A stretch of DNA of 64,000 bases, taken from the NCBI GenBank assembly GCA_963695555.1, contig CAVOGR010000002.1:1-64000 (forward strand), in the 5' to 3' direction. Positions 4,254-21,781 of the stretch are shown in pieces. Each line of letters opens with the position of its first letter. Within the stretch, counting starts at the first letter, position 1. The notes under the pieces were generated by a model. It did not search any database. It saw nothing but the letters and a program-made list of their open reading frames with translations, and was not told the origin of the DNA. This stretch comes from an uncultured Gemmatimonadales bacterium. GTDB taxonomy: Bacteria > Gemmatimonadota > Gemmatimonadetes > Gemmatimonadales > GWC2-71-9. Both the position numbers and the translations under genes were made by a program.

Positions 4254-4273
4254 ATCACCAATTTGCGAACTTC

Positions 4274-5277: not shown

Positions 5278-5398
5278 GATGAGCCTCCTGGAGGGACAAG
5301 GAGGGATCGATGAAGATGCTAACAGCTATCGGCTATCGGCCGAACACTCCTCACTCCTTACTCCTCACACCTTACTCCTCACTCCTCACTTCCCGCCT

Positions 5399-5938: not shown

Positions 5939-6029
5939 GATGTGCCTCCTGGTGGTGCAAGGAGGGATCGAGTTAGTGCTACTAGCTATCGGCTATCAGC
6001 TACGGTCAACCATTCCTCACTCCTTTCGA

Positions 6030-6061
6030 ACGGTAGGAGTCCAGGGTCAAGTGGAAGTCAA
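6030..6061 (-). promoter_or_regulatory. SARP-type promoter box
   Basis: - strand: TTGACTT-ccac-TTGACCC-N8-TACCGT. Confidence 0.7.
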
Positions 6062-6198
6062 GGCGCTTGCAGGAAGAGATCGCTGAGGGGTAGGAGCCAT
6101 AAGCTATTGGTTTCTTGGCTGCTCGAGAGATTCCGACCGACTTAAGTAGGACTGTCCTCCTGACAGGGGTGACTCTCTCTGGCTTCAACCGGTGCTCC

Positions 6199-6684
6199 TC
6201 AACATAGATAACCATCTTGACTAAAACAGGCGACTGCAGCGCCAACAACAAGGGCGAGTAAGATGCCGACCTCCGCGCCGCCGGACATCCCTTCCTGGCG
6301 GACGAACACACGATGAACGTTTTCGAGGGGGAACGTGTAAGTCGTATCCGAAACGCCGCTCTGATCCTGTACCTTCACCGGGCCAAAGACCGTGTCCCTG
6401 ACGATCCAGCCCGGTGGGTCAAACATATATCTGCCGCCCTTTTCAGTGACGACTCCGAGGATGGGGACCGGGCGGCGTATCACGTCAGCAGGTTTGGCCT
6501 GCCCGATGTGGGAGCACCCGGTGGTCTGCACGAGGAACAGACACATGACTACTGCTGCCAAAACTCGCCTCGCGAGGTTAGGCACTAACGGTTCTGGGCG
6601 GTTCGGGAACATGCCGCATCTCCCTTGAGAAGAAATCGCGATGTTACCGCTGGTGGGGATGCCAACAACGGCCATTGCCTTCAT
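6199..6684 (-). CDS. Hypothetical lipoprotein/membrane protein
   Basis: ORF with QTTGC lipobox-like segment and C-terminal TM; ATGA overlap with upstream gene (alternative start 6612). Confidence 0.5.
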   Translation of the reverse strand: MKAMAVVGIPTSGNIAISSQGRCGMFPNRPEPLVPNLARRVLAAVVMCLFLVQTTGCSHIGQAKPADVIRRPVPILGVVTEKGGRYMFDPPGWIVRDTVFGPVKVQDQSGVSDTTYTFPLENVHRVFVRQEGMSGGAEVGILLALVVGAAVACFSQDGYLC

Positions 6685-7088
6685 GTCGGCTCTTCTTGCG
6701 CTCTACAATCGAGCCTTCCGATCGGGGACTTGTCAGTGAACTCGCGTTCTTCCAGACCGACAGGAGCGCTGAGGATACTCACGAGTTCCCAGCCACCTCC
6801 GACGTGTGTGGCCAGGATGACAACGAGGTCCTTGCATCCCTCTTTCCGATAGGTCACCGCATGTTCCCGGTCGGGAGAAAGAGCCAGTTTCAACGGGGTT
6901 CTCCCCATCAACTCACCGTTCACCAAGACCTCGGCGCTGTCCGGGATCGACTCGAACAGCAGCTCGGCTTGCTCGGCGACCGATACGACGGGTCCCAGAG
7001 TCATGGGTCCCATACCTATACATGCAGAGATGGCCAGACCCACACCTAGGACAGCAGTGGTCGAGGCCAGTGAAATGACCTGTCTCAT
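6681..7088 (-). CDS. PEGA-domain lipoprotein
   Basis: AISAC lipobox; ESIPDSAEVLVNGELMGRTP PEGA signature; GAGG RBS. Confidence 0.75.
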   Translation of the reverse strand: MRQVISLASTTAVLGVGLAISACIGMGPMTLGPVVSVAEQAELLFESIPDSAEVLVNGELMGRTPLKLALSPDREHAVTYRKEGCKDLVVILATHVGGGWELVSILSAPVGLEEREFTDKSPIGRLDCRAQEEPT

Positions 7089-7113
7089 GTTGCTTCCTCA
7101 CTTAAGTTTTCAA

Positions 7114-7309
7114 CTCAGGCGGGTTCGCAGGAGGAGCGGCGTCAGGAAGGCGTCAGACCAGCGGCGGGCTCGCCCGAGGCAGGGCGAAGAGGTCCTATTT
7201 GGCTCCTCATAACACCGGGATGGGCAAGCCATCGTGAAGTGCGGGGGAAAACTTCTTCACGATGAAACGAGCTAGGGTTCTCCCTAATTCCGACATAGCA
7301 ATTCAGGTT
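7114..7309 (-). promoter_or_regulatory. Conserved upstream element, copy 2
   Basis: Colinear with 25282-25481 over ~195 bp. Confidence 0.7.
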
Positions 7310-7378
7310 AGTGGGTACTGGTGTTATGGCGGCTGTTTCACTCCTCACTCCTCACTCCTTACTCCTCACTTCCCGCCT

Positions 7379-7924
7379 TCAGAACCTCAAAACAACGCCA
7401 ACTCCGACCCCATTCTGCTGCGCAACGAGCCGCGGCCGCACTCGATCGAGCGGCACCTCCGACCACTTGTCGCTCTTGATGAACGCGCCCACACCAGCGC
7501 CGATGAGGCCAAGGCCGATTCCGCCCAGCATCGCCTTCCCGCCGGCGTCAATCCTAGTCTCCATGAAGCCTCCTGGCGGATCGTCGCCGGACGCCACCCC
7601 GATGACGAAGCCGAGCAAGAATCCGAGTCCTGCGCCCTGGATTGCGTGACCGCGACCGCCCGTCCTGACGTCCAGTTTGGTGACCATCGGCATCGCCACG
7701 TGCACCGTGTCGGCCCGCAGGTGCCCGCCCCGCATCACGTCCGTCTCCAGCACCAGGGTGTCACCCCTCGTCTCCCGTACTCGGCCTACTTGCGCGTCCA
7801 AGCCGAGCGTGGGAGCGGTGACCCTGATCTTGGCGCCGGGTGTTACCCACTGCGCGCCTTGTGCGACGGCTCGAGCGGGGCCGATTAATGTGAACGCTGT
7901 AACTGCGAGTATGATGTTGCGCAT
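7379..7924 (-). CDS. Secreted glycine-zipper protein, paralogue 3
   Basis: MRNIILAVTAFTLI... GVGVGVVLRF; very similar to 5399-5938. Confidence 0.8.
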   Translation of the reverse strand: MRNIILAVTAFTLIGPARAVAQGAQWVTPGAKIRVTAPTLGLDAQVGRVRETRGDTLVLETDVMRGGHLRADTVHVAMPMVTKLDVRTGGRGHAIQGAGLGFLLGFVIGVASGDDPPGGFMETRIDAGGKAMLGGIGLGLIGAGVGAFIKSDKWSEVPLDRVRPRLVAQQNGVGVGVVLRF

Positions 7925-8025
7925 GACGCGCCTCCTGGTGGTGGAAGGGAGAGATCGGTGGAGGCTGTCAGCTATTGGCTAATGCAACGAGCCACCTTCC
8001 CCACCGAATCCTTTGCTCCACCTCA

Positions 8026-8069
8026 ACGGTAGGAGCCCCGCGTCAAGCGAGGGTCAAGTGGGGAGTCAC
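8026..8069 (-). promoter_or_regulatory. SARP-type promoter box
   Basis: - strand: (GTGACTC)-TTGACCC-tcgc-TTGACGC-N8-TACCGT. Confidence 0.7.
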
Positions 8070-8222
8070 GGGTCGGGAAGGCGGTAGGTCGGCGGTTCGA
8101 CGTCCCCCCTTACTCCTTACTCCTTACTCCTCACTCCTCACTCCTCATTCCCCGTCTTTCCGACTTTTCAACTTCCCGTTCCCCGTCTGGCCACCCACGC
8201 CCCCGCGTCCTATCTTCGCCAC

Positions 8223-8879
8223 ATGCTGGTCGGCCACTACGGCATCGGGTTCGCCGCCGCGGGCGTCGACCGTCGGATCGCGCTCTGGGCGGCCCTGTTG
8301 GCGGCACAGCTCCCGGATATTCTGTTCGGATGCTTCGTGCTCCTGGGCATCGAGCACCTGACAATCGTTCCCGGCATCACGGCGTCCAATCCACTCGACC
8401 CGACCCACTTTCCCTATACCCACAGCCTCGTGGCAGGCTTGGTCCTGGGCGGCCTGACCTGGGTCGCATGCCTGGGCCTCGGTGCCCGCCGCCAGAGCGC
8501 GACCATCCTCGCCGCGGTCGTCGTCACGCACTGGCTGCTCGACCTCCCGATGCATCGCGCCATCCTGCCGGTGTACGACGACACCTGGAAGGTGGGGCTC
8601 GGTCTCTGGAACACACCACTCGCCGCCTTCGCGCTCGAGGCCGCGGTCCTCGTCGCCGGACTCGGACTGTATCTCAGCTCCACAGCCACGAGACCGGCCC
8701 GGCGACAGGCGCTCCTGATCGGAGCCGCGATGGTGATCGTACACCTGGCGATCTATCTCGCGCCGCGGCTCTTCTTCTCCACTTCACGACGCACCGTGTT
8801 GCTGGGACTCGGGCTCTGGCTCGCGTTCCCCGCGGCGGCAGCGCTGCTGGGTCGGCGTTCGCTCCGGGCCCAGAGCTAG
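8223..8879 (+). CDS. Membrane-bound metal-dependent hydrolase (YdjM-like)
   Basis: GH, LPD, YTHSL, HWLLDLPMH motifs; multiple TM segments. Confidence 0.75.
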   Translation: MLVGHYGIGFAAAGVDRRIALWAALLAAQLPDILFGCFVLLGIEHLTIVPGITASNPLDPTHFPYTHSLVAGLVLGGLTWVACLGLGARRQSATILAAVVVTHWLLDLPMHRAILPVYDDTWKVGLGLWNTPLAAFALEAAVLVAGLGLYLSSTATRPARRQALLIGAAMVIVHLAIYLAPRLFFSTSRRTVLLGLGLWLAFPAAAALLGRRSLRAQS

Positions 8880-8940
8880 CAGTCACACGACGGCGCGCGC
8901 CCTTCAACAGCGACATGACGACAAACGAAGGAGCTAGGGT

Positions 8941-9558
8941 GTGATGACCAACTCTAAGCTTGCACTAGGCACGCTGGTCCGTACCGGCCGGCCCGAGCCG
9001 CCCCTGACCGTCGCCAACCTGGTCACCTGGGTGCGGATCGCCGGGAGCATCTTCTGCTTTGCGATGGCCGCCGTCCACGCCGACCCTGCGTGGAACCTGG
9101 CGGGTCTCGTAGTGTATTGGGCGCTGGACCTGGTCGATGGCTTCCTGGCGCGGGCGCTCCGGCAGGAAACCCGAATGGGCGCGCAAATGGACATCATCGC
9201 CGACCGGCTGTTGATCACCTTCTTCTACTTCAACCATCTGGCCAGTCATCCCCAGTTGCTGCTGCCGATCGGGCTGTTTTTGATCGAGTTCGTGGGCCTC
9301 GACTTGTACCTGTCGATCCAGTTCCTCCGCTGGCCGATCGTGTCGCCCAATTACTTCTTCCGCATCGACCGACGCGTCTGGATGCTCAACTGGTCGTCCG
9401 TGGCCAAGATGAGCAACACCGGGCTGGTGACCGTGCTCAACCTACTGCCTGGCACGGCGTCGGTGACCGTGGCGGTGTGTCTCGGCTTGATCGGAGTGAA
9501 GCTGTATTCCTGGGTTCGCGTGCACGGGTTGCCAGGGCCGGAACAGCAGTGGATCTGA
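8941..9558 (+). CDS. CDP-alcohol phosphatidyltransferase family protein
   Basis: ANLVTWVR; DLVDGFLAR...GAQMDIIADR signature. Confidence 0.85.
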   Translation: MMTNSKLALGTLVRTGRPEPPLTVANLVTWVRIAGSIFCFAMAAVHADPAWNLAGLVVYWALDLVDGFLARALRQETRMGAQMDIIADRLLITFFYFNHLASHPQLLLPIGLFLIEFVGLDLYLSIQFLRWPIVSPNYFFRIDRRVWMLNWSSVAKMSNTGLVTVLNLLPGTASVTVAVCLGLIGVKLYSWVRVHGLPGPEQQWI

Positions 9559-9565
9559 TCGCAGC

Positions 9566-10603
9566 CTACGCGGCGACCCGCGGGCGGCGGCCGTTCAGCA
9601 ACACCCGCCGAAGCGGCAAATTCTCGAGCACCGCGAGCGGGTGCAGCAGATACCGCTCCACTTCCACGTAACAGGCGAGAAAGCACCGCGTCGCGCACGC
9701 CGGGTCGGTGATCCACTCGGCTTCGCGCTGCATGAGGGTGCACAGATCGGGATAGTCCTGCAGATACACCTGCCGGTCCATCTTCCGCTGGCACGGCAGA
9801 TACACGCGCCCATCGGGCTCGACCCGCGGCGACACCAGCGGGAAGCACCGGTGCGGGATGAAGTCGCGGATGGCGCGGAGATAGGCCGCGGAACAGAACA
9901 CCGGCCGCCCCGCCGCCTTGGCCCGGACCAGCCGGTCGAGCAGTGCCACATATGATGGATTGCCAGGCAGGTCGGGATTGGGATCGTACCGGCCGTGCTC
10001 GGGCGAGAGGGTGAGCTCGGCACCCAGTTCTGCACAGAGCGCGAGGATGTCCTCGATGCCGGCGATGGTCTCCGGTGCCACAACCGCGTGCAGACTCAGC
10101 CGGAACCCATGCTCCCTGGACAACTCAGCCGCCTGCCGGATAGCGGGCAGGATACGGCCGGTGATCCTCGGCACACCGCTCATCACGTCATTGATTGGAC
10201 CATCGATCGAGTCGAGGCTGATCACCACGTGATCGACCAGATGCAGGTCGTCGACATGGTGGTGCAACAGGAGGCCGTTGGTGCTCAACAGCAACGGCCG
10301 GAAGTCGAGCTCCCGGGCCCGCCGGAGCACCGCCCCTACGCCGGGATACATCAGCGGCTCGCCCCCCGTGATGTTGAGCGCCGGATTGTGCGGCCGGATC
10401 TTGTCGAGCAGTGCCACCGCCTCCTCCGTCGGCAGGCTCGGCTCGGGTCCGGGTGGATAGCAGTAGCGGCAGCGGAGGTTACAGCCCTTGGTGAGATAGA
10501 AATTGGTCATCAAGGGCCGGAACTGCCGGGCCCCGGTCCGCACGCAGTACAGGTCGATCAGGAAGTTGAGCGCCAATTCCGAATATGTGCGGGCGCTACC
10601 CAT
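9566..10603 (-). CDS. Radical SAM protein with C-terminal Cys-rich (SPASM/twitch-like) region
   Basis: CNLRCRYC, ITGGEP, C-terminal C...PC...CATRCFLAC; ATG 10603 overlaps upstream stop. Confidence 0.85.
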   Translation of the reverse strand: MGSARTYSELALNFLIDLYCVRTGARQFRPLMTNFYLTKGCNLRCRYCYPPGPEPSLPTEEAVALLDKIRPHNPALNITGGEPLMYPGVGAVLRRARELDFRPLLLSTNGLLLHHHVDDLHLVDHVVISLDSIDGPINDVMSGVPRITGRILPAIRQAAELSREHGFRLSLHAVVAPETIAGIEDILALCAELGAELTLSPEHGRYDPNPDLPGNPSYVALLDRLVRAKAAGRPVFCSAAYLRAIRDFIPHRCFPLVSPRVEPDGRVYLPCQRKMDRQVYLQDYPDLCTLMQREAEWITDPACATRCFLACYVEVERYLLHPLAVLENLPLRRVLLNGRRPRVAA

Positions 10604-11381
10604 GCCTGCCTCCCTCCGCCGGCGACTGGTCGATGGACTCGTGCAGGGCGCGGAGCTGGCGAGCTCGCAGGGCCTCACCACCGTCACCTGGTACCGGCTC
10701 CCCCCGCGCCAGCCGACGGAGCGCCGCCAGTCGTTGCAATGCCGTGAGGTTGGTGAGCAGGGCAAGCAACCAGACGATCGGCGCAAGCGGGAGCGTCGCC
10801 ACCCGTGTGATGCCGAACCCCAGAGCCTCCGCGGTGACGGTGAGCCAGCCGACCAGCAGGGTGTGCCCGACGCTCAGCAGCAGCCCCGCGGCAATCAGCG
10901 TCACCCTGTCCTGCCGCCGGAGCACGCCGGTGCGAAAGGCGTATCCATGGGCCTTGCCGACCGCCATGACGTAGCTGGTCGCCATTGAGCCCACCAACGC
11001 GAGTACCGCGGCCAACGCCGTCGCATCATGTCCGCCGCGCGCGAAGAAGATCGTGAGGCCGACGTAGACCGCGGCGTCCGCGTAGCGGTCGAGGATCGAG
11101 TCGAGGATGCCGCCGAACACCGTCACGCGATTGGTCAGTGCGGCGACCTTACCGTCACTGAAATCGAGAATCCCGCCCGCCACGATGAGCGCGCACGCAG
11201 TGATCAGGTGCCCGAAGGCGATGAAGACGCCGCCGCACAGGGTCAGCGTGAACGCCGCCACGGTAATCGCATTCGGGTTCACCCGGGAAACGATCAACCG
11301 GCGGATGACCGGCGTCACCGAGCGGGTGAACCAGGCGTCCAGCCAATCGGGGATGAGTCCCGTCCGCGTCTCGGATCTCAT
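10596..11381 (-). CDS. CDP-alcohol phosphatidyltransferase (PgsA/PIP-synthase-like)
   Basis: PNAITV; DFSDGKVA...GGILDSILDRYAD. Confidence 0.9.
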   Translation of the reverse strand: MRSETRTGLIPDWLDAWFTRSVTPVIRRLIVSRVNPNAITVAAFTLTLCGGVFIAFGHLITACALIVAGGILDFSDGKVAALTNRVTVFGGILDSILDRYADAAVYVGLTIFFARGGHDATALAAVLALVGSMATSYVMAVGKAHGYAFRTGVLRRQDRVTLIAAGLLLSVGHTLLVGWLTVTAEALGFGITRVATLPLAPIVWLLALLTNLTALQRLAALRRLARGEPVPGDGGEALRARQLRALHESIDQSPAEGGRHG

Positions 11382-12266
11382 GCCGGTGCCTCCCGCTCGG
11401 GTACCAGCACCCGCAGCGCCCGCCGGTCGAACGACCAGAGCGCCGGGGTGGAGCCCGCGGCCTCGCCATCCGCGAAGATGTCGCGGGGCGACTCCGTTAC
11501 GACCCGTACCGTCTGCCCGCGCCGCATCACGACACCCTGACGATTAGTATGCGTGCCGCGAAACACCCGGGGGAACTCGCGCAGTAAGCGGCCGCGCGAC
11601 ACCTCGGCCACGATACACACATCGAGCGCTCCATCGTCCATCTCGGCTGCGGGAGCGATACGCATACCTCCCCCGTAACATGGTCCGTTGGCCACCGCCA
11701 CCAGCGTGATTGCGCCACTCCAAGTCCAGTCGTCGACCGTCACCTCCGCCTCGAACGGCCGAAACGCGGCCAACGCCCGCAACACGCAGACGACATATCC
11801 GGCCGTTCCGCCCAGATATCCGGCGCGATCCCGTGCCAGCCGGTTTACCAAGGCGTCGAAGCCGACGCAGGCGACCGAGGCGAACGGCGTGCCGTTCACG
11901 GACGGGAGATCGACCTGGCGCTCGCGCAAGTGCCGGCCGCGCAAGAATGCCTCGCCGTCCCATCGTCCGGCGTCCAGGTTACGCAGGAAGTCGTTGCCTC
12001 GACCCGCTGGGACGACCCCGCACGGCAACCGCGCTTCGGCCAGAGCATCGAGCACCCCGTGCACCGTCCCGTCACCGCCCACCAAGACCACGCCTTCCGT
12101 TCCCTTGGCCGGTGCAGCCAGGATCAGTTCACTGGCCTGCTCCGCGCTTGCGGTGACTACCCACTCGAGGTCGTGATCCCCGGAACCGCTCACGCGTAGA
12201 CGCGTCCAGTTGCCGGAGCGCCGCCCCGCCTCCGGCATGCGGATTAACCAGGCCGAGCAGCCGCAC
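11378..12266 (-). CDS. Diacylglycerol kinase family lipid kinase (YegS/DagK), frameshift near 12170-12210
   Basis: GTG 12266 after AGGAGG gives VRLLGLVNPHAGGG; other frame gives GGDGT, PAGRGNDF, GFDA, NGPCYGGGM, DGE. Confidence 0.85.
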
Positions 12267-15200
12267 CGTGTTCCTCCTCCCAGGCTCGGGCCTGCATGAC
12301 AAAATTCTCGAGCAGGCCATACATCTGTTCGTCGCGGCGTCCGTCGTAGTGAAGGTGCCGAATCGGGAACCCGCCCAGATCGTCGGACACGCGCCGGCTC
12401 AACGCCTCCACAATGCCGCCCACCATGCAGCCGAATGGCGATACGTGGATGACGCCGCCTACCCCGCGCCGGAAGAGATCGATGCTTCGACCGATCCCGA
12501 CGATGGTCTCCCCTTCGAACGTGTTCGGCACATAGGGTGCCGCCAACCGGAACAACTCCGCAACCGAGGGATACCCGGCATTGGCCAGCCGTCCGCGCAC
12601 GGCCCGGGTGAGCCGTGCCATCTCGAAGCGCTGCAGGGCGTCTATCCCACGGAGCGAGAGTTCCCGTTTCCACTGGCCTTCGTAGCGACAATGGAGCCGC
12701 GCCGTCCAGTTGGTGTACAACACCCACTCCGCGAGTGATGGGTACCAGACCTCCGCGCCGAGCGCTTCGAGTTGGTCCGCCACCGCGGCGTTGGCGGCCG
12801 CGTTGCAGCGCACGTAGTTCTCCCCCAGGAGTCCCACCCGAACCGGTGGGCGGTGATTGCGGAGCGGCAGCGCCTCGAGCCGATCGAACCCGCGCCGGAG
12901 CACGTGGGCAAGGCCCTCGCCCCGTTCGATCGCCATACCGAGCGCGGCCAGCCCTTCCTTATAGGGTGCATCTGCCTCCGCGCGATCGACCGCCCGCGCC
13001 CGGCATTCCCGCCACTTTCTGAATAGGAGGTCCGTTGCCACGATTCCACTCCACACGCGGCGTTGAAAGCCCGCGGGGACCATGCCGAACTTTTCATAGA
13101 ATTCGGGATCCTGGCTCGCGTTGAAGATCGGGACGTCGGAGTGTCCCTGATCGTCGAGCACCACCCGCTGCAGCCACGGGTACTGCCCCAATCGACATGG
13201 TCCGTCGCCGGCGATCATGAAGAACGCCGGTTCGGGATCACTGGGGCGCTGGTGCTCGAGCTGTCGCAGCATGTCGCCGAGGACGAAGCTGCAGGGGAGA
13301 CATTCTCCGCCGTCCAACGCGGCCCGGCCCAGCGCTACCGATTCCTCGTCCGGGAGCGGGAGCACCTCGGCGTCCACGCCGCACGAGCGGAACGCAGCGG
13401 CGAAGGCGATGGCGTGGTCCGACATGCGGGGGATGAAGAGTCGGCGGGTCGCGAGGTCCGTCCCCGTTACCGCGCCTGGTGCGGATGGAGAAGCCGGAGT
13501 GGGTGCCCGCCGTGACCCGAACGTCCACCGGAACGCTTCGACCCGGGTGTGGATGCCGTTGAACTCGCTGTGCTCGTCGACTTCGATCTCGAGCAGCGGC
13601 ACGTCCCCGAGCTCGCGGCGCAGCATGTGCACAATGAACGAGTCGGGGCCGCACCCGAAACTCGACACGCTGATGGCCGAGATGTCCCCGAGGCGGCGGA
13701 GTGCCTGCGCGGTCTGGAGGATCCGCTTTCCATAATACCAGTACATGTCGTGCAACTCGCCGCTCGCGAGCGCCTCATCCCGCACCATCTCCATCGGTAC
13801 CCCGGTGACCCCGACGTCCGCGAGCACCCGGGTAAGCCGCAGCTGGACCTGCGGGTCGCACACCGTGTACGGGCGGGCGAGGATCACCGCCGTGGGCGAT
13901 GAGCCCCGCCGAGCCAGCACCTCATCCCCACGTTGCAGCATCTCCCGGCGGAAGGTGTCTTGCGCCTCACGAGCCGCGGCGAACGCGGCGCGCGTGTGAC
14001 GAGGCGACCGACCCAGCGTGCGGCCGAAGGCCACCATATCGTGCTCGGCCAGCCGCGGAAGTGACAGCCGGAGCCGCGGGATCAGGTACTCCACACCCTC
14101 GGGAAGGAGCGCCCGCGTCGTGTAGGGCCAGCCCTGCACGGCCGGGCACACATGATCGAGCCGCTCCGCCACGGTGCCGTGCTCGAGGCTCGCGACCGAG
14201 GGAAGCAGAATGCGTCGTACCCCGGCCGTCACCAGCGCGTCCACATGACCATACGCGACCGTGAGCGGCAGACACGCGTCGTGCCGTGCCAGCACCATGC
14301 CCCGCTCCAGTGTCGCCCGAGTGGTAGGCGGGGACAGTACATACGGCACACCGAGGTGACCCAGGAACGCGGTCCAGAACGGGAGCTGCTCGAGGAAGAG
14401 CAACGCGCGCGGGATGCCTACGGCATCCGCATCCCCCGGCGAAGCTTCCGCCACCCACCGGGTGGCGGCCGCCTCCCGTTCGGCAAACAGATCCAGCCGC
14501 TGGGCGGACCGGCCACCGTTTCCCCTGTCTACCTCGCCTCGTCCGTCGTAACGGTCGCACAGCCCGCCCGCAAAGAACCGGCGGCGCGATGGTCCTTGGG
14601 TGACGTGGACGGTGCAGCGATTACTGCATTGTGGGCAATTGAAGCTCCGGGTGCGGATCCGGGAGAGATCGCGCGCTCGAAGCCCCTGGAAGCGCGATGG
14701 ACCGCACACCTGCTCCGCCGCCAGCAGCGCGACACCGATTGCACCGGCCGCGTCGTTGAACGGATGCACCGTGACGTCGTGTTCCAGCACCTTCCGAAGT
14801 GCCGCGACGACTGCACCATTCGCGGCCACACCGCCCTGAAACGCGATCCGCCGGCCCGGTCGGTGGCGTCCAACAACTCGCCCGAGGTAGTTGCGCACCA
14901 CCGCATAGGCCAGTCCGGCCGCGAGGTCCTCGCGCGCGCAGCCTTCCTGCAGCCGGCGCGCGATCTCCGACGCCATGAAGACCGTGCAACGCTCTCCCAA
15001 CTCGATCGGCGCCCGGGAGCGGAGCGCTTCGCGCTCGAATTCCCCGACGATGTCCAGCCCAAGCACGGCTGCCATCTCCTCGAGGAAGGAGCCCGTGCCC
15101 GCAGAGCACACCTTGTTCATCTCGAACCCCACCACCGCCCCATGATCCAGCCGGATGTACTTGGCGTCCTGCCCACCAATGTCGAAGACCGTGTCGGCGT

Positions 15201-16449
15201 CCGGCAGATACCGCACGCATCCAGCCGCATGCGCCGTGATCTCATTCACCGCGAAGTCGGCGCCGATCAGCTCGGCCACGAAGCGCCGGCCGGAGCCGGT
15301 GACGCCGACGGCCGCGGGAGAGACGACTCCATGGCGCTCCTCGAGCGCGCGCAGTACCGCCGCTACCGCCGCGAGGGGATCGCCGCGGGTGGGCACCGAC
15401 TGGGTGTGTCGCACCGCGCCGTCCGGCGCGAGCCACGCCAAATTGGTGCTGGTCGAACCGATATCGATCCCCAGGGTGCCGCCGCTCATCGGCTGGTGGT
15501 CCGGTGGTTCGGGCCTGGCGACAGCCGGGGGCGACGGGCGGCCATTCGGCGCGAGCGGAGGCAGCACCACCCGCGGGGGCACAGGCGGCGCGGACGTCCG
15601 CACCCGTAGAATTGCCTCAGCAAGTGGCACCGCGGATTGATCCGACATGGCTCGCCCCGCAATGACGGCCCCGACCGCGCCGACCAGCGCGTGCAGATGT
15701 GGCACGACGAGCTCACCCGGATCCAGGCCCAGGGTCTCGATCACGGCGCGCCGCACGCCCCCGTTGGCCGCGACCCCACCCACTAATGCCAGGGGCCGCG
15801 GCGGTGTCTGGGCGCCGATCACCTCTCGCGCCAGGCTCTGGGCGATGGCGAGACACAGGGCATAGGCCAGATCGTCCAGCGGGATGCCGTTCTGATGCTT
15901 GTGCACCAGATCGGTCTTGGCGAAGACGGCACACCGGCCGGCAATGGGAACGGAGCGCTGGGCTGTCGCGGCCAGCTGGGCAAACTGCTCGATCGACAGC
16001 CCGAAGCGGTGGGCTTCCTGTTCGAGGAAGGCGCCGGTACCGGCCGAGCATGCACCGTTTAGCGCGAAGTCCTCGAGTATCCGATCGTCGGTCTCGGTCG
16101 GGGGGCCGAAGCGTAGGAAGGCTGAATGCTCGCCGCCAAGCTCGAGTGCCGCACCTGCCTCGGGAACCAGGTGCACCACCCCGCGGGAGGTGGCGACGAT
16201 CGGATTGACCTGGGTGACGCCCAGGAATTCCGCGTACCTGTCCGCCCGGTTTCCGGTTACCGCGACCAGCATGCACCGCGCCTCGGGCAGCGCGCGGGCC
16301 AGCTCCTCGAGCACGCCTGCGAGGCACGGCTGGAGCCGGCCCCGGATCGGCCGGCATACCTGGGCGGCCACAATGCCATCGCGCAGGACGACCGCCTTGA
16401 TGGCGGTCGAACCGAGGTCGATCGCAGCGAACAGGTCGCTGGCCGTCAT
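12244..16449 (-). CDS. Fused acyl-CoA dehydratase activase (2x BcrAD_BadFG) + DUF2229 + 2-hydroxyacyl-CoA dehydratase; PlsA/Ger (plasmalogen synthase / glycerol ester reductase) architecture, 1401 aa
   Basis: IDLGST, CSAGTGAFLE, GRCAVF; GIDIGSTS, DIGGQDAK, CSAGTGSFLE, CTVF; CPQCSNRC; VGIPRAL; FGCGPDSF, EVDEH; ECLP, GPCRLGQY, PFGCM; ATGA coupling at 16449. Confidence 0.88.
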   Translation of the reverse strand: MTASDLFAAIDLGSTAIKAVVLRDGIVAAQVCRPIRGRLQPCLAGVLEELARALPEARCMLVAVTGNRADRYAEFLGVTQVNPIVATSRGVVHLVPEAGAALELGGEHSAFLRFGPPTETDDRILEDFALNGACSAGTGAFLEQEAHRFGLSIEQFAQLAATAQRSVPIAGRCAVFAKTDLVHKHQNGIPLDDLAYALCLAIAQSLAREVIGAQTPPRPLALVGGVAANGGVRRAVIETLGLDPGELVVPHLHALVGAVGAVIAGRAMSDQSAVPLAEAILRVRTSAPPVPPRVVLPPLAPNGRPSPPAVARPEPPDHQPMSGGTLGIDIGSTSTNLAWLAPDGAVRHTQSVPTRGDPLAAVAAVLRALEERHGVVSPAAVGVTGSGRRFVAELIGADFAVNEITAHAAGCVRYLPDADTVFDIGGQDAKYIRLDHGAVVGFEMNKVCSAGTGSFLEEMAAVLGLDIVGEFEREALRSRAPIELGERCTVFMASEIARRLQEGCAREDLAAGLAYAVVRNYLGRVVGRHRPGRRIAFQGGVAANGAVVAALRKVLEHDVTVHPFNDAAGAIGVALLAAEQVCGPSRFQGLRARDLSRIRTRSFNCPQCSNRCTVHVTQGPSRRRFFAGGLCDRYDGRGEVDRGNGGRSAQRLDLFAEREAAATRWVAEASPGDADAVGIPRALLFLEQLPFWTAFLGHLGVPYVLSPPTTRATLERGMVLARHDACLPLTVAYGHVDALVTAGVRRILLPSVASLEHGTVAERLDHVCPAVQGWPYTTRALLPEGVEYLIPRLRLSLPRLAEHDMVAFGRTLGRSPRHTRAAFAAAREAQDTFRREMLQRGDEVLARRGSSPTAVILARPYTVCDPQVQLRLTRVLADVGVTGVPMEMVRDEALASGELHDMYWYYGKRILQTAQALRRLGDISAISVSSFGCGPDSFIVHMLRRELGDVPLLEIEVDEHSEFNGIHTRVEAFRWTFGSRRAPTPASPSAPGAVTGTDLATRRLFIPRMSDHAIAFAAAFRSCGVDAEVLPLPDEESVALGRAALDGGECLPCSFVLGDMLRQLEHQRPSDPEPAFFMIAGDGPCRLGQYPWLQRVVLDDQGHSDVPIFNASQDPEFYEKFGMVPAGFQRRVWSGIVATDLLFRKWRECRARAVDRAEADAPYKEGLAALGMAIERGEGLAHVLRRGFDRLEALPLRNHRPPVRVGLLGENYVRCNAAANAAVADQLEALGAEVWYPSLAEWVLYTNWTARLHCRYEGQWKRELSLRGIDALQRFEMARLTRAVRGRLANAGYPSVAELFRLAAPYVPNTFEGETIVGIGRSIDLFRRGVGGVIHVSPFGCMVGGIVEALSRRVSDDLGGFPIRHLHYDGRRDEQMYGLLENFVMQARAWEEEHGAAARPG

Positions 16450-18296
16450 GATGCGCCCCCGACCGCATCGTTCCGCCGGCGCACCAGGTAGTCGCCGATC
16501 ACCAGTGCATCGAGGCCCGCCCGGAGAAAACATTGGATCGCGTCGTCCGGGGTGCACACGATGGGCTCGCCGGCCTGGTTGAACGACGTATTGAGCAGTA
16601 CCGGCAAGCCGGTCAGCGCCTTGAACTCCTGCAACAGGCGGTGAAATCGTGGCTCGTGCGCCTCGCGTACCACCTGCACGCGGGCTGACCCGTCGACGTG
16701 CACGACGCCCGCGATCCGCTGCCGCTCGGCAACGCGGGCGGGATAGGTCACCACCATGAAGGGCGCCGCGGTGTCGTCCGGGATATCGAAGAACGCGTGC
16801 GCGTCCTCGGCAAGCACGCTGGGCGCGAAGGGCCGGAACCCTTCCCGGTGCTTGACCAGCGCGTTGATGCGGTCCCGCACCTCGACCGATGCCGGTGTTG
16901 CGAGGATACTGCGGGCACCGAGCGCGCGCGGTCCGAATTCCATGCGGCCCTGATGCCACGCGACGATCGCGCCATCCGCCAGGAGCCGCGCGGCGTGGGC
17001 CTCGATCTGTTCCATGCGCTGCCAATCGATTCCTGGCGTTTTGCTCAATGCGTCTTCGATGGCGCGGTCCGTGTACCGGGGACCCCAGGTGGTATGCAGG
17101 ATCGCTTCGGAAGTCGGATTGCCATCATACGTGTGGTGGGCATAGAGCGCCGCTCCGAGCGCCGCACCGTCGTCCGATGCCGCTGGCTGGACGAACAACT
17201 GGCTGAACAGGTTGGAACGGACGATGGCACCATTCAGACATGCGTTGAGCCCCACACCGCCGGCGATACACAGGCGTTCGAGCGAAAACCTCCCGCGCAA
17301 ATATCTGAGCGAGTGCAACACAGCCCGTTCCAATGCCTGCTGCAGCGCCGCGGCCACGTCGGCACTTTGTCGGCCGTACGCTCCTGGCGTCTCGGCCGGA
17401 CCGAATTGGAGCTCGAGCCAGTGGTACAGATCGGGCCGGCACATGGATCGCGTCGACCACACGCCATCCGCGTCCAGATGGACCAACTCGCGAAACACCG
17501 CGGCGAACCGGTCGGCGTTCCCATACGCCGCGAGGCCCATGGTCTTGTACTCGTCCCCATAGGTGCGGAACCCGAGATACGCAGTGATCAGCTGGTAGAG
17601 GGTGCCCAGGGAGCTCGGCAGTGGTATCCTGCCCTGCGGCGTGACCTGGCCACCGGTACCCACGGCCCACATCGCGCTTTCTTCTTCGCCGTAGCCATCC
17701 AGCGTCAGGCACAAGGCTTCGTCGAAGCCCGAGCTGTAGAACGCCCCGGCCGCATGCGCCAGATGATGCGGTACGCTCAGGAACTGATCCGGGGCGATCG
17801 GGCGGTCGGCAATCTGCTCCAACCGTGCCCGCACCACCGCCGGTGCGAGCCGACTCGCAAATGCATCCAAGTACTCCTGCTCGAGCAAGCGACCCAGGTC
17901 GGGCTCGAGTCCGCTCGCCACCCGCTCGAACCGTGCGCGCACCGCTTCGGGTGTGAAGCTGCAATAATGCGCCACGAGGTTCACGTCGGCCCAGGTGCAA
18001 CCTGCTTCCTCCAGACAGTATTGAATGGCGCGGCGTGGCAGGAGGGTGCGGCCGGCGAGGTTGAATCCGTGCTTCTGACGCGTGAACCGCTCCTCGGCGG
18101 CGCACGCCACGAGGCGGCCGTCCACCAGAATTGCCGCCGCCGCATCGTGGCCGATGAGTCCGAGCGGGAAGAACTGGAGGGGGACGGTACCGTTCCAGTT
18201 ACTGAACGGAGCGTCCGGAGACACCTGGCCGGCATACGGGTGGGGGGTGCCGGAGTGGCTGGCATTCTCGAACCCGCTGATCCCGAGGACGATCAT
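16446..18296 (-). CDS. O-carbamoyltransferase (NodU/CmcH/TobZ family)
   Basis: HDAAAA, EERFTR.KH, HHLAHA, GGVGLN, EFGPRALGARS, RPFAP, HVDGSARVQ, NTSFN. Confidence 0.95.
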   Translation of the reverse strand: MIVLGISGFENASHSGTPHPYAGQVSPDAPFSNWNGTVPLQFFPLGLIGHDAAAAILVDGRLVACAAEERFTRQKHGFNLAGRTLLPRRAIQYCLEEAGCTWADVNLVAHYCSFTPEAVRARFERVASGLEPDLGRLLEQEYLDAFASRLAPAVVRARLEQIADRPIAPDQFLSVPHHLAHAAGAFYSSGFDEALCLTLDGYGEEESAMWAVGTGGQVTPQGRIPLPSSLGTLYQLITAYLGFRTYGDEYKTMGLAAYGNADRFAAVFRELVHLDADGVWSTRSMCRPDLYHWLELQFGPAETPGAYGRQSADVAAALQQALERAVLHSLRYLRGRFSLERLCIAGGVGLNACLNGAIVRSNLFSQLFVQPAASDDGAALGAALYAHHTYDGNPTSEAILHTTWGPRYTDRAIEDALSKTPGIDWQRMEQIEAHAARLLADGAIVAWHQGRMEFGPRALGARSILATPASVEVRDRINALVKHREGFRPFAPSVLAEDAHAFFDIPDDTAAPFMVVTYPARVAERQRIAGVVHVDGSARVQVVREAHEPRFHRLLQEFKALTGLPVLLNTSFNQAGEPIVCTPDDAIQCFLRAGLDALVIGDYLVRRRNDAVGGAS

Positions 18297-18305
18297 GGCT
18301 GACGC

Positions 18306-19235
18306 TCACCCGTCGCCCACGGTCTCGAGAGTCCGGCCGGACACGAAGTAGTAGGCCGGGCGCAGCAGGCATTCGAGTGCGACCAGTCGGGTGCGGCGCG
18401 AGAGCGCCGCGAGTCGCTTCTTCAGGTCCGGATGTGTGGTCCACCGCGCCGGGTCTTCCGACACCCCGAACCAGTGCTCGAACGTGAGCCCGTGGGCGTC
18501 GAACATGTGGAACAGGTCATCCAGCGTTACTGGCTGCTCGTACGCCGGAAACATCTGGTCGGCCAGCCAGGCTGGGTGCTCCAACAACCAGCGGATGCCG
18601 TCCGTTCCCGAGCCCCGGGGCGTGTAGAATCCTGCGCCTACCGCGTAGCGGTCTCCCAAGTCCTCCAGGAAGGCCCGGGCCAGTGCGGCGCGATCTTCAT
18701 CCCCCCGAGCCGGGTCGCCGAGCAAGTCCAGGAACTTGCGGTTGAGCAGGTGTGCTGCCCGTCCGTGGCGGCCGTACATCCAGAGCACCAACCGCCCTCC
18801 GGGTCTGAGTCGCGCGACGAGGTTTGCCACGGCAGTGGACACCTCGGGCACGTGATGCAGCACGCCAAGCGCCAGCACCACGTCGAACGTGCCGAGGCTT
18901 TCGAGCGACCCGGTGGCGTCCGCCCGTTCGAAGAGCAGATTTGCCATTCCCGCCGCGCCGGCAAGATCCCGTGCCTGGTCGAGCGCGGTGGACGAGACGT
19001 CCACGCCGACGAACTCCACCGCGGGCAGCCGCCGGGCTAGGGCAATCACGGTGTGTCCGGTGCCGCAGCCTACGTCCAGCAGCCGCGCAACAGGTCCAGC
19101 CGGACGTCCGAGCCACTCGCCGAGATACCGGAGCAGGGCCAGTCCTTCCGGACTCGTGTGATCGGTGCCGGGAAACGGCCAGCGATCGTAGTGCCGCGAG
19201 ACCGCGGTCGCCGCGTGATCACGCGCGTTGCTCAT
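18306..19235 (-). CDS. Class I SAM-dependent methyltransferase
   Basis: LLDVGCGTG, FDVVLALGVLHH, LRPGG. Confidence 0.9.
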   Translation of the reverse strand: MSNARDHAATAVSRHYDRWPFPGTDHTSPEGLALLRYLGEWLGRPAGPVARLLDVGCGTGHTVIALARRLPAVEFVGVDVSSTALDQARDLAGAAGMANLLFERADATGSLESLGTFDVVLALGVLHHVPEVSTAVANLVARLRPGGRLVLWMYGRHGRAAHLLNRKFLDLLGDPARGDEDRAALARAFLEDLGDRYAVGAGFYTPRGSGTDGIRWLLEHPAWLADQMFPAYEQPVTLDDLFHMFDAHGLTFEHWFGVSEDPARWTTHPDLKKRLAALSRRTRLVALECLLRPAYYFVSGRTLETVGDG

Positions 19236-20743
19236 ACGAAGAACCCCGTCCGATGCGAGAATCGGTCCGCCACCAGGAAGTACCGATGTAGCCGTTGCGC
19301 TACCGCCGGGTCTACATCCCCCTCCCGGAATTCGCTGCTGATCACATTCACCAAGAACGACGCGTCGATATCGCGCTGGTTGAAGAAATTCGGCAGCACC
19401 CGGTCTGCGAGGGCCACCCGTTTCGGGCTGAAGAAGAATTCGCGGACGCCCTCCCGTTTGATCTCATCGAGCCGCTCGCGGCTGAATCCGTAGGGTCCCT
19501 CCCGGCTCCGCACGTAGTCCTCTTCGAGCCCCAGCTGGAATGCCTTCATGTCGCAGGTCTGTTCGGCGAGGCGGTAGAGCGGCGTGCCCGGGAAGTAGAC
19601 CACGACGAAAAACATTGCCAGCACCAGGTCGCTCTCATTGGCAAATCGGATGGTCTCGAGCGCCTCCTGTTCGGTTTCGGTCGGGAACCCGAGCATGAAG
19701 TACCCCTTGGAGACGATCCCCTTCGCCGTGCTCCGGGCGATCGCCTGACGGATACGATCGAGCTGCATGTTCTTCTGGATCAACTTCTGAATGCGCGGTG
19801 AGCCGCTCTCAATTGCGTACGAGATGTACCGGACGCCGGCCTCCCACATCGCGTCGACCATCTCATCGTCCACCCGATCGCCGCGCAGGCCGTTGGGAAA
19901 CGAGATGACCAGCTTCAGTCCTTCGCGAACGACGCGGTCGAAGAACGTCATCGCGCGCTCACGATCGAGGTTGAAGATGTCATCGATGATTTGGAAGTTG
20001 GTGATGCCCCACTCGTCGTGGAGCCGCTTCATTTCGGCGAACACTCGCTCGGCGGAGTGCGCCCGCATTCGTTTACCAAACACCTGGTGGCAGTAGAGAC
20101 ATCGGTAGGGACAGCCTCGGGAGCTGAACAGGTTTGCGTGCGTCACGTTGCGGCGGAACGAGAAATCCACGTGCCCTCGGTTGATGCCGAGAAAATCGAC
20201 GAGCCGATGGTCCGGCATAGGCAACGCGTCGAGATTCTCGATCAGCGGCCGGGGCACGAACCGGATGCCGCCGTCATGGCGCACGGCGAGGCCCGGAATG
20301 CCGTCGAGTGATTTCCCGTCGAGCAGCCGGCCGACCAGCTCTACTGCCGTCTGCTCTCCTTCCCCCACGGCCGCGGCATCGAACGCCTCGTCGGCGAGCA
20401 CCTCCTCTGGATTGTCCGACGCGTGTGGTCCGCCGGCCACGACGATGGGCACGCGGTACTCCTGCTTGGCCAGTCGTGCAATCTCGTGCAGCGGGCCACG
20501 ACCCATGGTGAGACTTCGGAGGCCGAGCACATCGGGGGGCCACGCCGCAAGCAGCGCTCTCAGCCGCGCGAGGCCGTCTGTCTTGTGCTCGTAGGATTCA
20601 ATCCTGAGATCTATGCGCTCCCCGAACGCCTGCGTGAGCACCGTACCGATGTAGACCAGGCCGATCGGATATTCCAGCATATCCACTGTGGTGTCGAGCG
20701 TCACATGGCTGACGTCGAGCAGCAGGACCCGGAGCGGCTTCAT
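19232..20743 (-). CDS. Cobalamin-binding radical SAM protein (class B methylase-like)
   Basis: ATG 20743 MKPLRVLLL; PIGLVYI, GGPHAS, GEGE, SRGCPYRCLYC, DDIFN, IESGS, MLGFPTET. Confidence 0.9.
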   Translation of the reverse strand: MKPLRVLLLDVSHVTLDTTVDMLEYPIGLVYIGTVLTQAFGERIDLRIESYEHKTDGLARLRALLAAWPPDVLGLRSLTMGRGPLHEIARLAKQEYRVPIVVAGGPHASDNPEEVLADEAFDAAAVGEGEQTAVELVGRLLDGKSLDGIPGLAVRHDGGIRFVPRPLIENLDALPMPDHRLVDFLGINRGHVDFSFRRNVTHANLFSSRGCPYRCLYCHQVFGKRMRAHSAERVFAEMKRLHDEWGITNFQIIDDIFNLDRERAMTFFDRVVREGLKLVISFPNGLRGDRVDDEMVDAMWEAGVRYISYAIESGSPRIQKLIQKNMQLDRIRQAIARSTAKGIVSKGYFMLGFPTETEQEALETIRFANESDLVLAMFFVVVYFPGTPLYRLAEQTCDMKAFQLGLEEDYVRSREGPYGFSRERLDEIKREGVREFFFSPKRVALADRVLPNFFNQRDIDASFLVNVISSEFREGDVDPAVAQRLHRYFLVADRFSHRTGFFV

Positions 20744-21781
20744 GAGACACCCCCGTCGTGGACCGTGAGCCAGCGAGGGCCGCGGGCGTGGGATAACGTT
20801 GGACCGACAAACAGCACCGTCCCATCGGGCTCGTGTTCGCCGCGGCTCGAGCCCGGCAAGTCGAAACAGCTGCTCGATCAGATGGTTGCGCGCATTGGCG
20901 CGATACCGGGCGGCCAGGGTTGTCGCTCCGTCGAGCGCGGCCTGGCGCCGAACCCAGGCAAGAAAGAATCCGGCTATCCCGCGGGACAGAACCCGGCACG
21001 ACAGCAAGAAGACCGCAAGCTCCCAGCGATCTTTGTGACGACGGCAGGCGGCCACCCCGATCCGTCCGTAGTCGGTGAAACGGTCCGTAAGCTCCGCGAT
21101 GAACAGGCGCCAGCGGTCATCCGTGAGCCAGCCCTCGATGGCGTCGGGCTCCCACACAATGCCGGTTGAGTTCAACTGATGGGTGCGCTGGAGCAACTCC
21201 AACACACGCGCCAGGTCGCCAGGCACTGCATACCGCAGGGTCAACTCGGTGTTACACCATGCCAGGAAGTCGCTTTGAGACATTCCGGATGTTTGCGCTG
21301 CACGCTCGCGCTGTTCCATTCCTCGATAGGTAGCGCGGCGGGAGCGCGATTCGGGCGACAGCGCCGTGGGTGAGAATTCCGGTAGGGTCGGGAGTGCCTG
21401 GCAGGCGTCGGCCGAATAGGTACGGACGGCGGGGAGTATGTGCCGGACTTGTTCACGCTCGAACGCCTCGTCATCGATGAACCCAACGGCATCGAGGGCG
21501 ACATCGAGCTGTGCGGCGATCGTACGCACGCTCCGGACCTTGCTCTCCCAACCGATCTGCGGATGGAGGAAGTAGCGCGCCAGCCCCTTCTGCTGGAGGA
21601 GCCGCTGTGCTTGGTCTGGGTCGTTCCGGCTGGCGACCGATTGCAGGACGCCGCGGCGGTCCAATTCCTCGACCACCCCCCGCACGCCGCGTCGGAGCCG
21701 GCAGGCGTCGGACTCGAGCAGCGTCCCGCTCCACAGCGTGTGGTCGAGGTCCCAGATGAGGCACTTCACGACGTCAGGCAT
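20740..21781 (-). CDS. FkbH-like glyceryl-ACP transferase/phosphatase (HAD-IIIC), frameshift near 20842
   Basis: VKCLIWDLDHTLW, SVASRN, FIDD..FER, RTHQLN, LSCRV; shifted frame ends ...PRWLTVHDGGVS* at TGA 20740. Confidence 0.88.

Follow-up and report, generated by a model that had tools for sequence, protein, structure and literature searches.

We analysed a 64,000-nucleotide stretch of DNA (hereafter, the window) that forms positions 1 to 64,000 of contig CAVOGR010000002.1 in the assembly (GCA_963695555.1) of an uncultured Gemmatimonadales bacterium. Our subject is a gene of this window, P0001, whose product resembles glycerol ester reductase (Ger) and the anaerobic plasmalogen synthase PlsA/PlsR, and the run of genes in which it lies. 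These twelve genes, tightly packed and all on the (-) strand, follow one another in the order 4'-phosphopantetheinyl transferase (PPTase), short-chain dehydrogenase/reductase (SDR), acyl carrier protein (ACP), B12-binding radical S-adenosylmethionine (SAM) protein 1 (rSAM-1), FkbH-domain protein, B12-binding radical SAM protein 2 (rSAM-2), methyltransferase, carbamoyltransferase, the Ger-like protein, lipid kinase, CDP-alcohol transferase and radical SAM protein 3 (rSAM-3). They are referred to below as the operon (Table 1).

Table 1. Positions in the window of the Ger-like gene, its modules, the other operon genes and the segment that carries them
Feature	Position	Strand	Basis or remarks
~25-kb segment absent from both sampled same-genus genomes	428..25600		DNA comparison with G023 and G153
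4'-phosphopantetheinyl transferase (start codon uncertain)	24360..25232	(-)	PF01648
SDR / thioester-reductase-like protein, frame broken near 23662	23379..24363	(-)	PF01370, PF07993; TIGR01746 70 bits, below cut-off
Acyl carrier protein	23112..23375	(-)	NF052616-like, 64.8 bits, below cut-off; runs into rSAM-1 via extra base 23111/23113
B12-binding radical SAM protein 1 (rSAM-1), frame broken near 21952, 21986, 22616	21795..23105	(-)	
FkbH-domain protein (HAD-IIIC), frame broken near 20842	20755..21802	(-)	TIGR01686 214.6 bits, cut-off 146.65
B12-binding radical SAM protein 2 (rSAM-2), 503 aa	19232..20743	(-)	Aligns 1-503 in single frame to L032
Class I SAM methyltransferase, 309 aa	18306..19235	(-)	
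NodU/CmcH-type carbamoyltransferase, 616 aa	16446..18296	(-)	PF02543, PF16861
Ger/PlsAR-like gene P0001	12244..16449	(-)	Open frame, 1401 aa; full-length homologs ~1400 aa
P0001, activase domain 1 (Act1; residues ~8-265; Cys134, Cys173)	15655..16428	(-)	HadI 4eht E 2e-25
P0001, activase domain 2 (Act2; residues ~326-577; Cys448, Cys488)	14719..15474	(-)	HadI 4eht E 3e-34; HgdC 1hux E 6e-32
P0001, linker, four-Cys motif C605xxC608xN610xC612...C631	14557..14637	(-)	Conservation in homologs
P0001, catalytic module 1 (Red1; DUF2229 onward, residues ~668-980; Cys726, Cys768, Cys933)	13510..14448	(-)	PF09989 and predicted fold
P0001, catalytic module 2, PlsR-like (Red2; residues ~1000-1395; Cys1050, Cys1085, Cys1341)	12265..13452	(-)	Predicted fold match
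YegS/DAGK-family lipid kinase, 286 aa	11378..12238	(-)	PF00781, PF19279; TIGR00147 120 bits, cut-off 118.65
CDP-alcohol phosphatidyltransferase, nearest PIP/AIP-synthase type	10596..11381	(-)	PF01066
Radical SAM protein 3 (rSAM-3), 345 aa, without B12 domain	9566..10603	(-)	PF04055; ATG at 10603, GGAGG upstream

The Ger-like protein and its modules

The first-pass annotation, made from the nucleotide sequence, had described P0001 as a single chain of 1401 amino acids with two activase domains, a CxxCxNxC linker, DUF2229 and dehydratase-like domains, an architecture that it ascribed to PlsA and Ger. The open frame was confirmed. Its ATG at 16449 overlaps the stop codon of the carbamoyltransferase frame, the closest homolog (92% identity) has 1400 aa and the alignments of homologs begin at residues 1-10, which is why we prefer this reading to the longest open reading frame (TTG at 17025, 1593 aa). 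Comparison with the homologs from loci L032, L034 and L037 and from genome G235 revealed no frame break. The order of modules is Act1-Act2-linker-Red1-Red2.

The Pfam family PF01869 (BcrAD_BadFG) matches the protein in two stretches with an E-value of 7e-58, the best of them at residues 326-577, and the NCBIfam model TIGR00241 scores 262 bits (cut-off 125). Taken alone, each activase domain matches both HadI and HgdC (domain 1 matches HgdC, 1hux, with E 1e-18), and the two domains also match MbdQ/P. Cys134/173 and Cys448/488 align with cysteines of HadI and HgdC, and both pairs are invariant among homologs, Cys134/Cys173 in the 29 sequences of alignment A1. In the linker, the motif C605-P-Q-C608-S-N610-R-C612 and Cys631 are likewise invariant, in 29/29 homologs of A1 and in 59/59 of alignment A2. 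PF09989 (DUF2229) follows at residues 677-889 (E 1.5e-45; profile positions 2-218 of 218), and linker and module 1 together contain seven invariant cysteines. For the last 518 aa there was no Pfam match even at E ≤ 10, PF06050 included; this family is recorded for only some of the homologs. Module 2 nevertheless aligns with separate PlsR-like genes of other genomes in the phylum.

The dehydratase-like domains were thus not recovered by Pfam but were recovered by fold. The AlphaFold model of residues 585-1401 (pLDDT 86.6, pTM 0.88) gave 19 Foldseek matches at E ≤ 0.001, all of them DCCP, HadBC, BzdNO or MbdON chains, which VIA-align placed on residues ~24/84-396 of the model with Z-scores of 14.6-11.1; for module 1 these include HadC (3o3m_D, Z 14.6, rmsd 4.0, 266 residues aligned), DCCP (14.2) and BzdO (13.6), and the alignment to DCCP begins at the linker. 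The model of residues 990-1401 (pLDDT 90.1) had 20 matches at the same threshold, again with this superfamily only, and a Foldseek-independent search for module 2 returned 7yyl_C (Z 13.7, 295 aligned), 8s02_B (13.7), 3o3m_B (13.5) and 9g87_B (13.0), the next row being at 9.7. In the predicted models, both modules downstream of the linker share the fold of the catalytic subunits of HadBC, BzdNO and DCCP. Sequence searches of the PDB with profiles A3 and A2 yielded chance-level rows only (DCCP at E 0.6-1.1, over a short C-terminal motif), so that the cysteines of the catalytic modules are not alignable, residue by residue, to the ligands of HadBC or DCCP. The four-Cys linker may be an additional iron-sulfur (FeS) relay or a zinc ribbon; a larger cluster may also be possible, given the seven invariant cysteines of linker and Red1 and the alignment of DCCP from the linker on.

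The dehydratases, benzoyl-CoA reductases and DCCP-type enzymes of known structure [HadI/HadBC (4eht, 3o3m), HgdC (1hux), BzdNO (8s02), MbdONPQ (9gai) and DCCP/DCCP-R (6eno, 7yyl)] have activases homologous to those of P0001 (E 1e-21 to 1e-34) and, in HadBC, BzdNO, MbdON and DCCP, the fold of both its catalytic modules (Z 11-14.6). They share with it the ATP-driven electron-injection logic that we propose below, but consist of separate subunits, act on CoA thioesters or small molecules, and have catalytic parts that are ≤16% identical to P0001 with no match at the sequence level. P0001 might accordingly be read as part of a fermentative 2-hydroxyacyl-CoA dehydratase system or as an aromatic-ring reductase, with the matches of its activases to HadI, HgdC and MbdQ/P and of its catalytic folds to HadBC, BzdNO and MbdON as the evidence. 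However, it is a fused protein of 1401 aa, and this ~1400-aa layout with DUF2229 is that of Ger and fused PlsA (PMC13159169, PMC12838417). PF06050 was not detected, the scanned neighbours include neither a CoA-transferase nor a CoA-ligase, and the catalytic part has no sequence-level match to such enzymes. We consider this explanation very improbable.

Among 8000 candidates scored, 708 full-length homologs of ~1400 aa had E ≤ 0.001, with identities from 92% to ~35%; their names include Gemmatimonas sp. SG8_28, Gemmatimonadota, Zixibacteria, Deltaproteobacteria, Thermodesulfobacteriota and Syntrophorhabdus. The loci examined in genome_contigs are 80 out of a total of >599 matches; nearly all come from metagenome-assembled genomes (MAGs), and a single isolate strain, Desulfocarbo indianensis, is among them. 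To 79 MAG homologs of the wider family, P0001 is 30-42% identical over ~1390 aa. In a set of 135 full-length sequences (45 from the clade of P0001 described below and 90 from outside it), 15 cysteines (134, 173, 199, 448, 488, 605, 608, 612, 631, 726, 768, 933, 1050, 1085 and 1341) are at least 97% conserved. Since all 15 are common to the 90 wider PlsA/Ger-type homologs, P0001 likely has PlsA/Ger-type chemistry, that is, ATP-driven, FeS-mediated reduction of an ester to an ether. Judging from sequence, it is best placed, as a single chain, in the PlsA/Ger branch of the superfamily formed by benzoyl-CoA reductases and 2-hydroxyacyl-CoA dehydratases.

The architecture is indeed the one described for Ger and for fused PlsA, a 'BB-D' layout followed by a PlsR-like part (PMC13159169, PMC12838417). 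Ger of Thermotoga maritima (Tmari_0479) and D. alkenivorans (SHJ90043), which produced 1-alkyl glycerol ethers in E. coli under anaerobic conditions only, is, like P0001, a single chain of ~1400 aa that combines PF09989 with a pair of PF01869 domains; its C-terminus is PlsR-like, as that of P0001 appears to be (Sahonero-Canavesi et al. 2022, PMC13159169). In contrast to Ger, P0001 has no detected PF06050 stretches and is part of a deep clade of its own in which a 12-gene operon is conserved; the passages of PMC13159169 consulted give no operon context for Ger. Plasmalogens have been obtained with PlsA/PlsR of C. perfringens (CPE1194/1195) and with the fused PlsA of E. faecalis, L. cremoris and B. 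longum (PMC12838417). PlsA/PlsR has the same modules (Act1, Act2, Red1 and Red2), exists in a fused form and is described as an oxygen-sensitive FeS enzyme of the benzoyl-CoA reductase / 2-hydroxyacyl-CoA dehydratase type that acts on the sn-1 ester, which we count as a further likeness; the split PlsA plus PlsR-like form found in other genomes of the phylum, at 34-39% identity, falls outside the clade of P0001. The presence of two activase domains (the 'BB' layout), as in P0001, correlates with alkyl-ether producers, although alkyl and alkenyl products are at present not assignable from primary structure (PMC13274423). The product type of P0001, alkyl or alkenyl (Ger versus PlsA), is not readable from its sequence.

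A deep clade bound to a conserved operon

Trees were built from the first ~1000 residues and are unrooted. In the FastTree phylogeny of 159 rows, P0001, P0002-P0047, L032, L033, L034 and L037 fall into a clade of 49 rows with support of 100 on a stem of 0.77. The other 109 rows lie outside it, including the split forms of other genomes in the phylum and representatives of Thermodesulfobacteriota, Bacteroidota, Planctomycetota, Armatimonadota, Clostridia and an 'uncultured Thermotogaceae' bin; L094 is placed next to the clade, its branch being long and the support low (84). IQ-TREE (LG+C20+F+G4), run for speed on 40 chosen rows of the 159 (the other 119 being left out), also split off the 13 clade rows, with SH-aLRT support of 100 and a branch length of 1.1. 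By these trees P0001 is a member of a deep, well-supported separate clade. In the alignment, its catalytic equipment is unchanged from that of the wider family: only eight positions cleanly separate clade from non-clade sequences in the set of 135, and there is no cysteine among them.

The clade is tied to the operon. The first-pass annotation had placed the Ger-like gene directly upstream of a DAG kinase and a CDP-alcohol transferase, and a YegS/DAGK-type lipid kinase and such a transferase indeed follow on the same strand, with the kinase ATG at 12238, 5 nt past the Ger stop. The operon is colinear in all five clade loci that have genomic context (the window, L032, L034, L037 and G235). L032, whose protein is identical to that of Gemmatimonas sp. 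SG8_28, is 68% identical to P0001; L034, a locus cut upstream, 57%; and L037, from a Gemmatimonadota MAG, 58%. In G235 (77%) all twelve operon genes are present, each in a single frame. A 3-kb fragment, L033, carrying Ger, the kinase and the start of the transferase, is consistent with the same order. The lipid kinase is kept in L032, L033, L034 and G235 (L037 had no kinase match) and the CDP-alcohol transferase in L032, L034, L037 and G235. In L037 there are extra genes upstream, for a PlsC-like acyltransferase and a metallo-beta-lactamase-fold protein, and both L037 and L034 have a fourth radical SAM gene downstream. The link to kinase and transferase, kept in relatives of 57-77% identity, is thus no local accident and nothing points to fermentation, which bears out the earlier preference for a lipid substrate over amino-acid fermentation. 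The description of the locus as a lipid operon stands as regards this link and has to be widened otherwise: the operon is much larger, with FkbH, ACP, three radical SAM proteins, a carbamoyltransferase and a methyltransferase among others, so that a specialised lipid, and not bulk phospholipid, may be what the enzyme acts on.

As for the individual genes, the PPTase of G235 is 52% identical and occupies the same position, rSAM-1 is intact (437 aa) in L032 and G235, the carbamoyltransferase is adjacent and 59-75% identical in L032, L034, L037 and G235, and rSAM-3 is 61-64% identical in the same four. The CDP-alcohol transferase scores 90-100 bits with the NCBIfam models of archaetidylinositol-phosphate (AIP) and phosphatidylinositol-phosphate (PIP) synthases, below their cut-offs. 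A Protein Atlas search with rSAM-2 returned generic B12-rSAM clusters only. All listed homologs of rSAM-2 are stand-alone proteins of ~503 aa, and the fused 'FkbH-B12-rSAM' and 'ACP-B12' proteins that the window seems to encode were rejected as frameshift artefacts.

Outside the clade, none of 79 genome_contigs loci had more than one operon homolog at E ≤ 1e-8 (in flanks of ≤10 kb, many contigs being shorter), and three had a single weak one: a CDP-alcohol transferase in L068 (35% identity), a kinase in L074 (25%) and a radical SAM protein in L099 (25%). In L099, from a Thermoguttaceae MAG, the gene concerned (9064-10007), distantly related (25%) to the B12-rSAM type, lies directly upstream of the non-clade Ger homolog and may represent an independent Ger-rSAM pairing. 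As a proxy for linkage, we compared the sizes of longest contigs: for 21 of 46 clade proteins, this contig equals in size that of an rSAM-2 homolog that is ≥55% identical. One of these is a 3.6-Mb Zixibacteria contig, for which equal size does not demonstrate adjacency. The genome from which L037 comes (G201) has two rSAM-2 copies, 71% and 70% identical to that of the window, on contigs C27 and C53; these may reflect a second operon copy or a mixed bin.

The genome of P0001 has one DUF2229 gene. No close ortholog was found among 200 other genomes sampled from the phylum. In 25 of these there was a long PlsA-like match of 34-39% identity, mostly a gene of ~1000 aa followed by a separate PlsR-like gene of ~400 aa, while two same-genus genomes had only small activase-like matches. 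In a second sample, one of 400 other phylum genomes had a match at E ≤ 1e-200, a count that is a floor because a stricter first look was used; this is G235, from the same family and another genus. The operon is accessory and rare in the phylum. The earlier suggestion that 'this lineage' is a candidate ether-lipid producer is therefore too broad, as the ortholog is found in 1/400 other phylum genomes and both sampled same-genus genomes lack the 25-kb segment that carries the operon. Matches to public sequencing runs amount to small word shares (≤0.14) in sediment, estuary, marine and soil metagenomes.

These data bear on the simplest reading of the gene, an ordinary housekeeping Ger or PlsA that acts on bulk membrane phospholipids, its neighbours being unrelated and merely co-located. 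The catalytic cysteine set is that of the wider family, few signature positions differ, and the characterised Ger and PlsA act alone on the lipids of their E. coli host (PMC13159169, PMC12838417). On the other hand, the genes are strictly colinear and packed or overlapping in all five clade loci and in none of the 79 non-clade loci is more than one operon neighbour found, the clade sits on a long separate stem, and gene and operon move together as an accessory unit. We regard a housekeeping role as improbable.

Ger homologs as such were already known from Gemmatimonadetes and Zixibacteria (PMC13159169, supplementary text), the published screen for Ger/PlsA homologs having used E ≤ 1e-50 and coverage ≥ 30%. 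In our searches PF09989 was found in the control genomes of T. maritima and L. lactis, and a search with the 'uncultured Thermotogaceae' homolog (L058) retrieved Spirochaete-like and Bacteroidales-like proteins and no named Thermotoga. We did not find the clade together with its operon described in the literature searched (subscription journals lay outside that search). The new findings are that the clade is tied to an operon, that it is accessory and carried on an island, and that the operon is damaged in the present assembly.

Candidate substrate and mechanism

On balance, we favour the view that P0001 is an ester-to-ether enzyme of the PlsA/Ger branch, from a separate clade, which probably acts on the dedicated glycerolipid of its operon, or on a precursor of it, as part of an accessory operon, and would work at low oxygen only. 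The chemistry is taken by analogy from the established mechanism of the superfamily and fitted to the module order, cysteines, folds, operon and distribution observed here. Its base is the 'archerase' model of HgdC/HadI. The two fused activase domains would form an internal pseudo-dimer that holds a [4Fe-4S] cluster on Cys134/173 and Cys448/488. ATP hydrolysis would inject a low-potential electron, possibly via the four-Cys linker, into the two HadB/C-like modules, in each of which three invariant cysteines could hold a Cys3-ligated cluster as the site where the ester carbonyl is bound and reduced. Starting from an acyl ester on glycerol, reduction of this carbonyl and dehydration would give a 1-alkenyl ether, and further reduction would lead to an alkyl ether.

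Because the clade always accompanies a lipid kinase or CDP-alcohol transferase together with carrier-protein, radical-SAM and tailoring enzymes, the substrate is most likely a dedicated glycerolipid or precursor, built or decorated by the operon, and not bulk phospholipid; as to which lipid this is, we can only guess. In the genome of P0001, three haem-copper oxidase (COX1) matches exceed the cut-off and no Tes homolog does. The haem-copper oxidases suggest that the host respires oxygen, so that an oxygen-sensitive enzyme would be expected to act at low oxygen only.

Several points weigh against this assignment. PF06050 is undetected in P0001. The kinship to Ger and PlsA rests on Pfam architecture and on the 30-42% identity to MAG homologs, the characterised enzymes being compared by description only. 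The longest internal branch of the tree divides the clade from the other sampled homologs, which is compatible with a change of substrate. In the window, the operon includes neither an acyltransferase nor a CDP-diglyceride synthase. Finally, if the six insertions described in the next section are real, the pathway would be broken in this organism.

A change of substrate could mean a thioester. FkbH would load a glyceryl unit (a 2-hydroxyacyl group) on the ACP, ketyl-radical chemistry in the HAD-like modules would then serve to remove or reduce this group, and P0001 would be a 2-hydroxyacyl-ACP dehydratase. The operon indeed encodes an ACP, a PPTase and an FkbH domain that scores above cut-off; HadBC is matched by the catalytic folds no less well than other members of the superfamily; and the long stem of the clade fits such a shift. 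However, the catalytic part resembles only PlsA/Ger-type proteins by sequence, and the dehydratases of the PDB were not found by sequence; the lipid kinase, the CDP-alcohol transferase and the PlsC-like acyltransferase of L037 point to lipids; and the discriminating positions number only eight, none of them a cysteine. A thioester substrate appears to us quite improbable.

The assignment as an ester-to-ether enzyme can also be extended to the whole operon, as a rather unlikely scheme in which the twelve genes form a so far undescribed pathway for a tailored ether (phospho)lipid. Here FkbH would load a glycerate-derived unit on the ACP, the two B12-rSAM enzymes would modify it and the SDR would release it; methylation and carbamoylation would follow, and the kinase and CDP-alcohol transferase would join it to a lipid. 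The Ger-like clade would be specialised for forming the ether bond on a non-canonical lipid or a carrier-bound intermediate, and the whole set would be an accessory module that moves between Gemmatimonadota, Zixibacteria and related lineages of the FCB group.

A dedicated ether-lipid pathway has a counterpart in ElbD, a single multidomain protein that employs loading by an AMP-ligase domain and functions aerobically. ElbD has in common with the present operon an ACP, a thioester-reductase-type SDR and, in the case of L037, a PlsC-like acyltransferase. The operon described here differs from ElbD in having FkbH, the B12-rSAM enzymes and the Ger-like enzyme instead. By description, the likeness extends to the myxobacterial elb pathway being encoded by an operon dedicated to ether lipids (PMC13159169; preprint 10.64898/2026.06.23.733905).

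For bacterial ether lipids, including the brGDGTs (glycerol dialkyl glycerol tetraethers of the branched type) used as climate proxies, a full list of producers and pathways is still lacking, and Ger/PlsA homologs are usually screened as stand-alone marker genes. A Ger-like clade that is hard-wired into an operon with carrier-protein, B12-radical-SAM, carbamoyl and head-group enzymes suggests a modified ether lipid of unknown class in sediment-dwelling bacteria of the FCB group.

Frameshifts, the 25-kb island and its surroundings

Compared with the intact proteins of L032, the frame changes in the SDR (~23662), in rSAM-1 (~22616, 21986 and 21952), in FkbH (~20842) and at the passage from ACP into rSAM-1 (~23111). 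As three operon genes and one gene junction are frameshifted in the assembly, the proposal of an ether-lipid producer is not supported in its original wording. Contigs of four public runs (≥85% likeness; these are contigs of other samples, not the reads behind the present assembly) have exactly one base fewer at 20842, 21952, 21986, 22616, 23111/23113 and 23662, and one related contig that spans 20815-20963 is identical to the window apart from the extra base.

The pathway could thus be a decaying relic in this genome, with the Ger-like gene open and the operon inactivated by frameshifts, an idea that is compatible with the other readings. In its favour are the clustering of all six 1-nt insertions within 2.9 kb, none at a long homopolymer, the lack of any frame break in the other operon genes (Ger, carbamoyltransferase, methyltransferase, rSAM-2, kinase, transferase and rSAM-3) and the alignment of the adjacent 12 kb to the congeneric genome G023 as a single colinear block (window 27007-39371, 89% identity). 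It is countered by the related contig being identical over 148 nt bar the extra base and by the uniform sign of the changes: six insertions with no deletion over 2.9 kb are more suggestive of a fault in local assembly or polishing than of decay. The 3.6-Mb assembly consists of 14 contigs, so it may derive from long reads, and local mis-polishing would look alike. Decay is, in our view, possible but doubtful.

The operon is part of a ~25-kb segment. Both same-genus genomes, G023 and G153, match the window at 9-427 and 25599-26531, and the gap between these matches is ~1.5 kb in G023 and 0.1 kb in G153. The segment is an insertion in the window genome or a loss in its congeners. Besides the operon, this island holds a Ser/Thr kinase-TPR gene, a gene for a trypsin-like peptidase, small unknown ORFs, a YdjM-like gene and a second CDP-alcohol transferase gene. 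No tRNA gene was found in the window and no direct repeat between the two borders of the island; the large ORFs of the island matched no mobile-element family of Pfam, and several ORFs were without any match. What flanks the operon in G235 shows no relation to the other island genes of the window.

The YdjM-like membrane protein and a PgsA/ClsA-like CDP-alcohol phosphatidyltransferase are encoded at 8223-9558 (+), convergent on the end of the operon; neither gene was found adjoining the operon in L032, L034, L037 or G235. Ser/Thr protein kinases with TPR regions are encoded both in the island (477-2981, (-) strand) and in the part of the window conserved in G023 (36561-39371, (-) strand), the latter being followed by a BTAD/AAA regulator gene (34636-36573). 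Tandem repeats of the heptamers CTCCTTA/CTCCTCA, which on the opposite strand read AGGAGTA and are Shine-Dalgarno-like, occur between called ORFs at ~5346-5390, 7338-7370, 8108-8152, 25565-25600, 28213-28271, 34604-34657, 39675-39701, 40283-40390, 48127-48166 and 49781-49803, and the congener G023 has dozens more copies. Farther downstream, at 49891-59239 (-), there is a run of genes for glycogen/alpha-glucan metabolism that code for three GH57-family proteins, a starch-synthase-type glycosyltransferase and a glucan phosphorylase.

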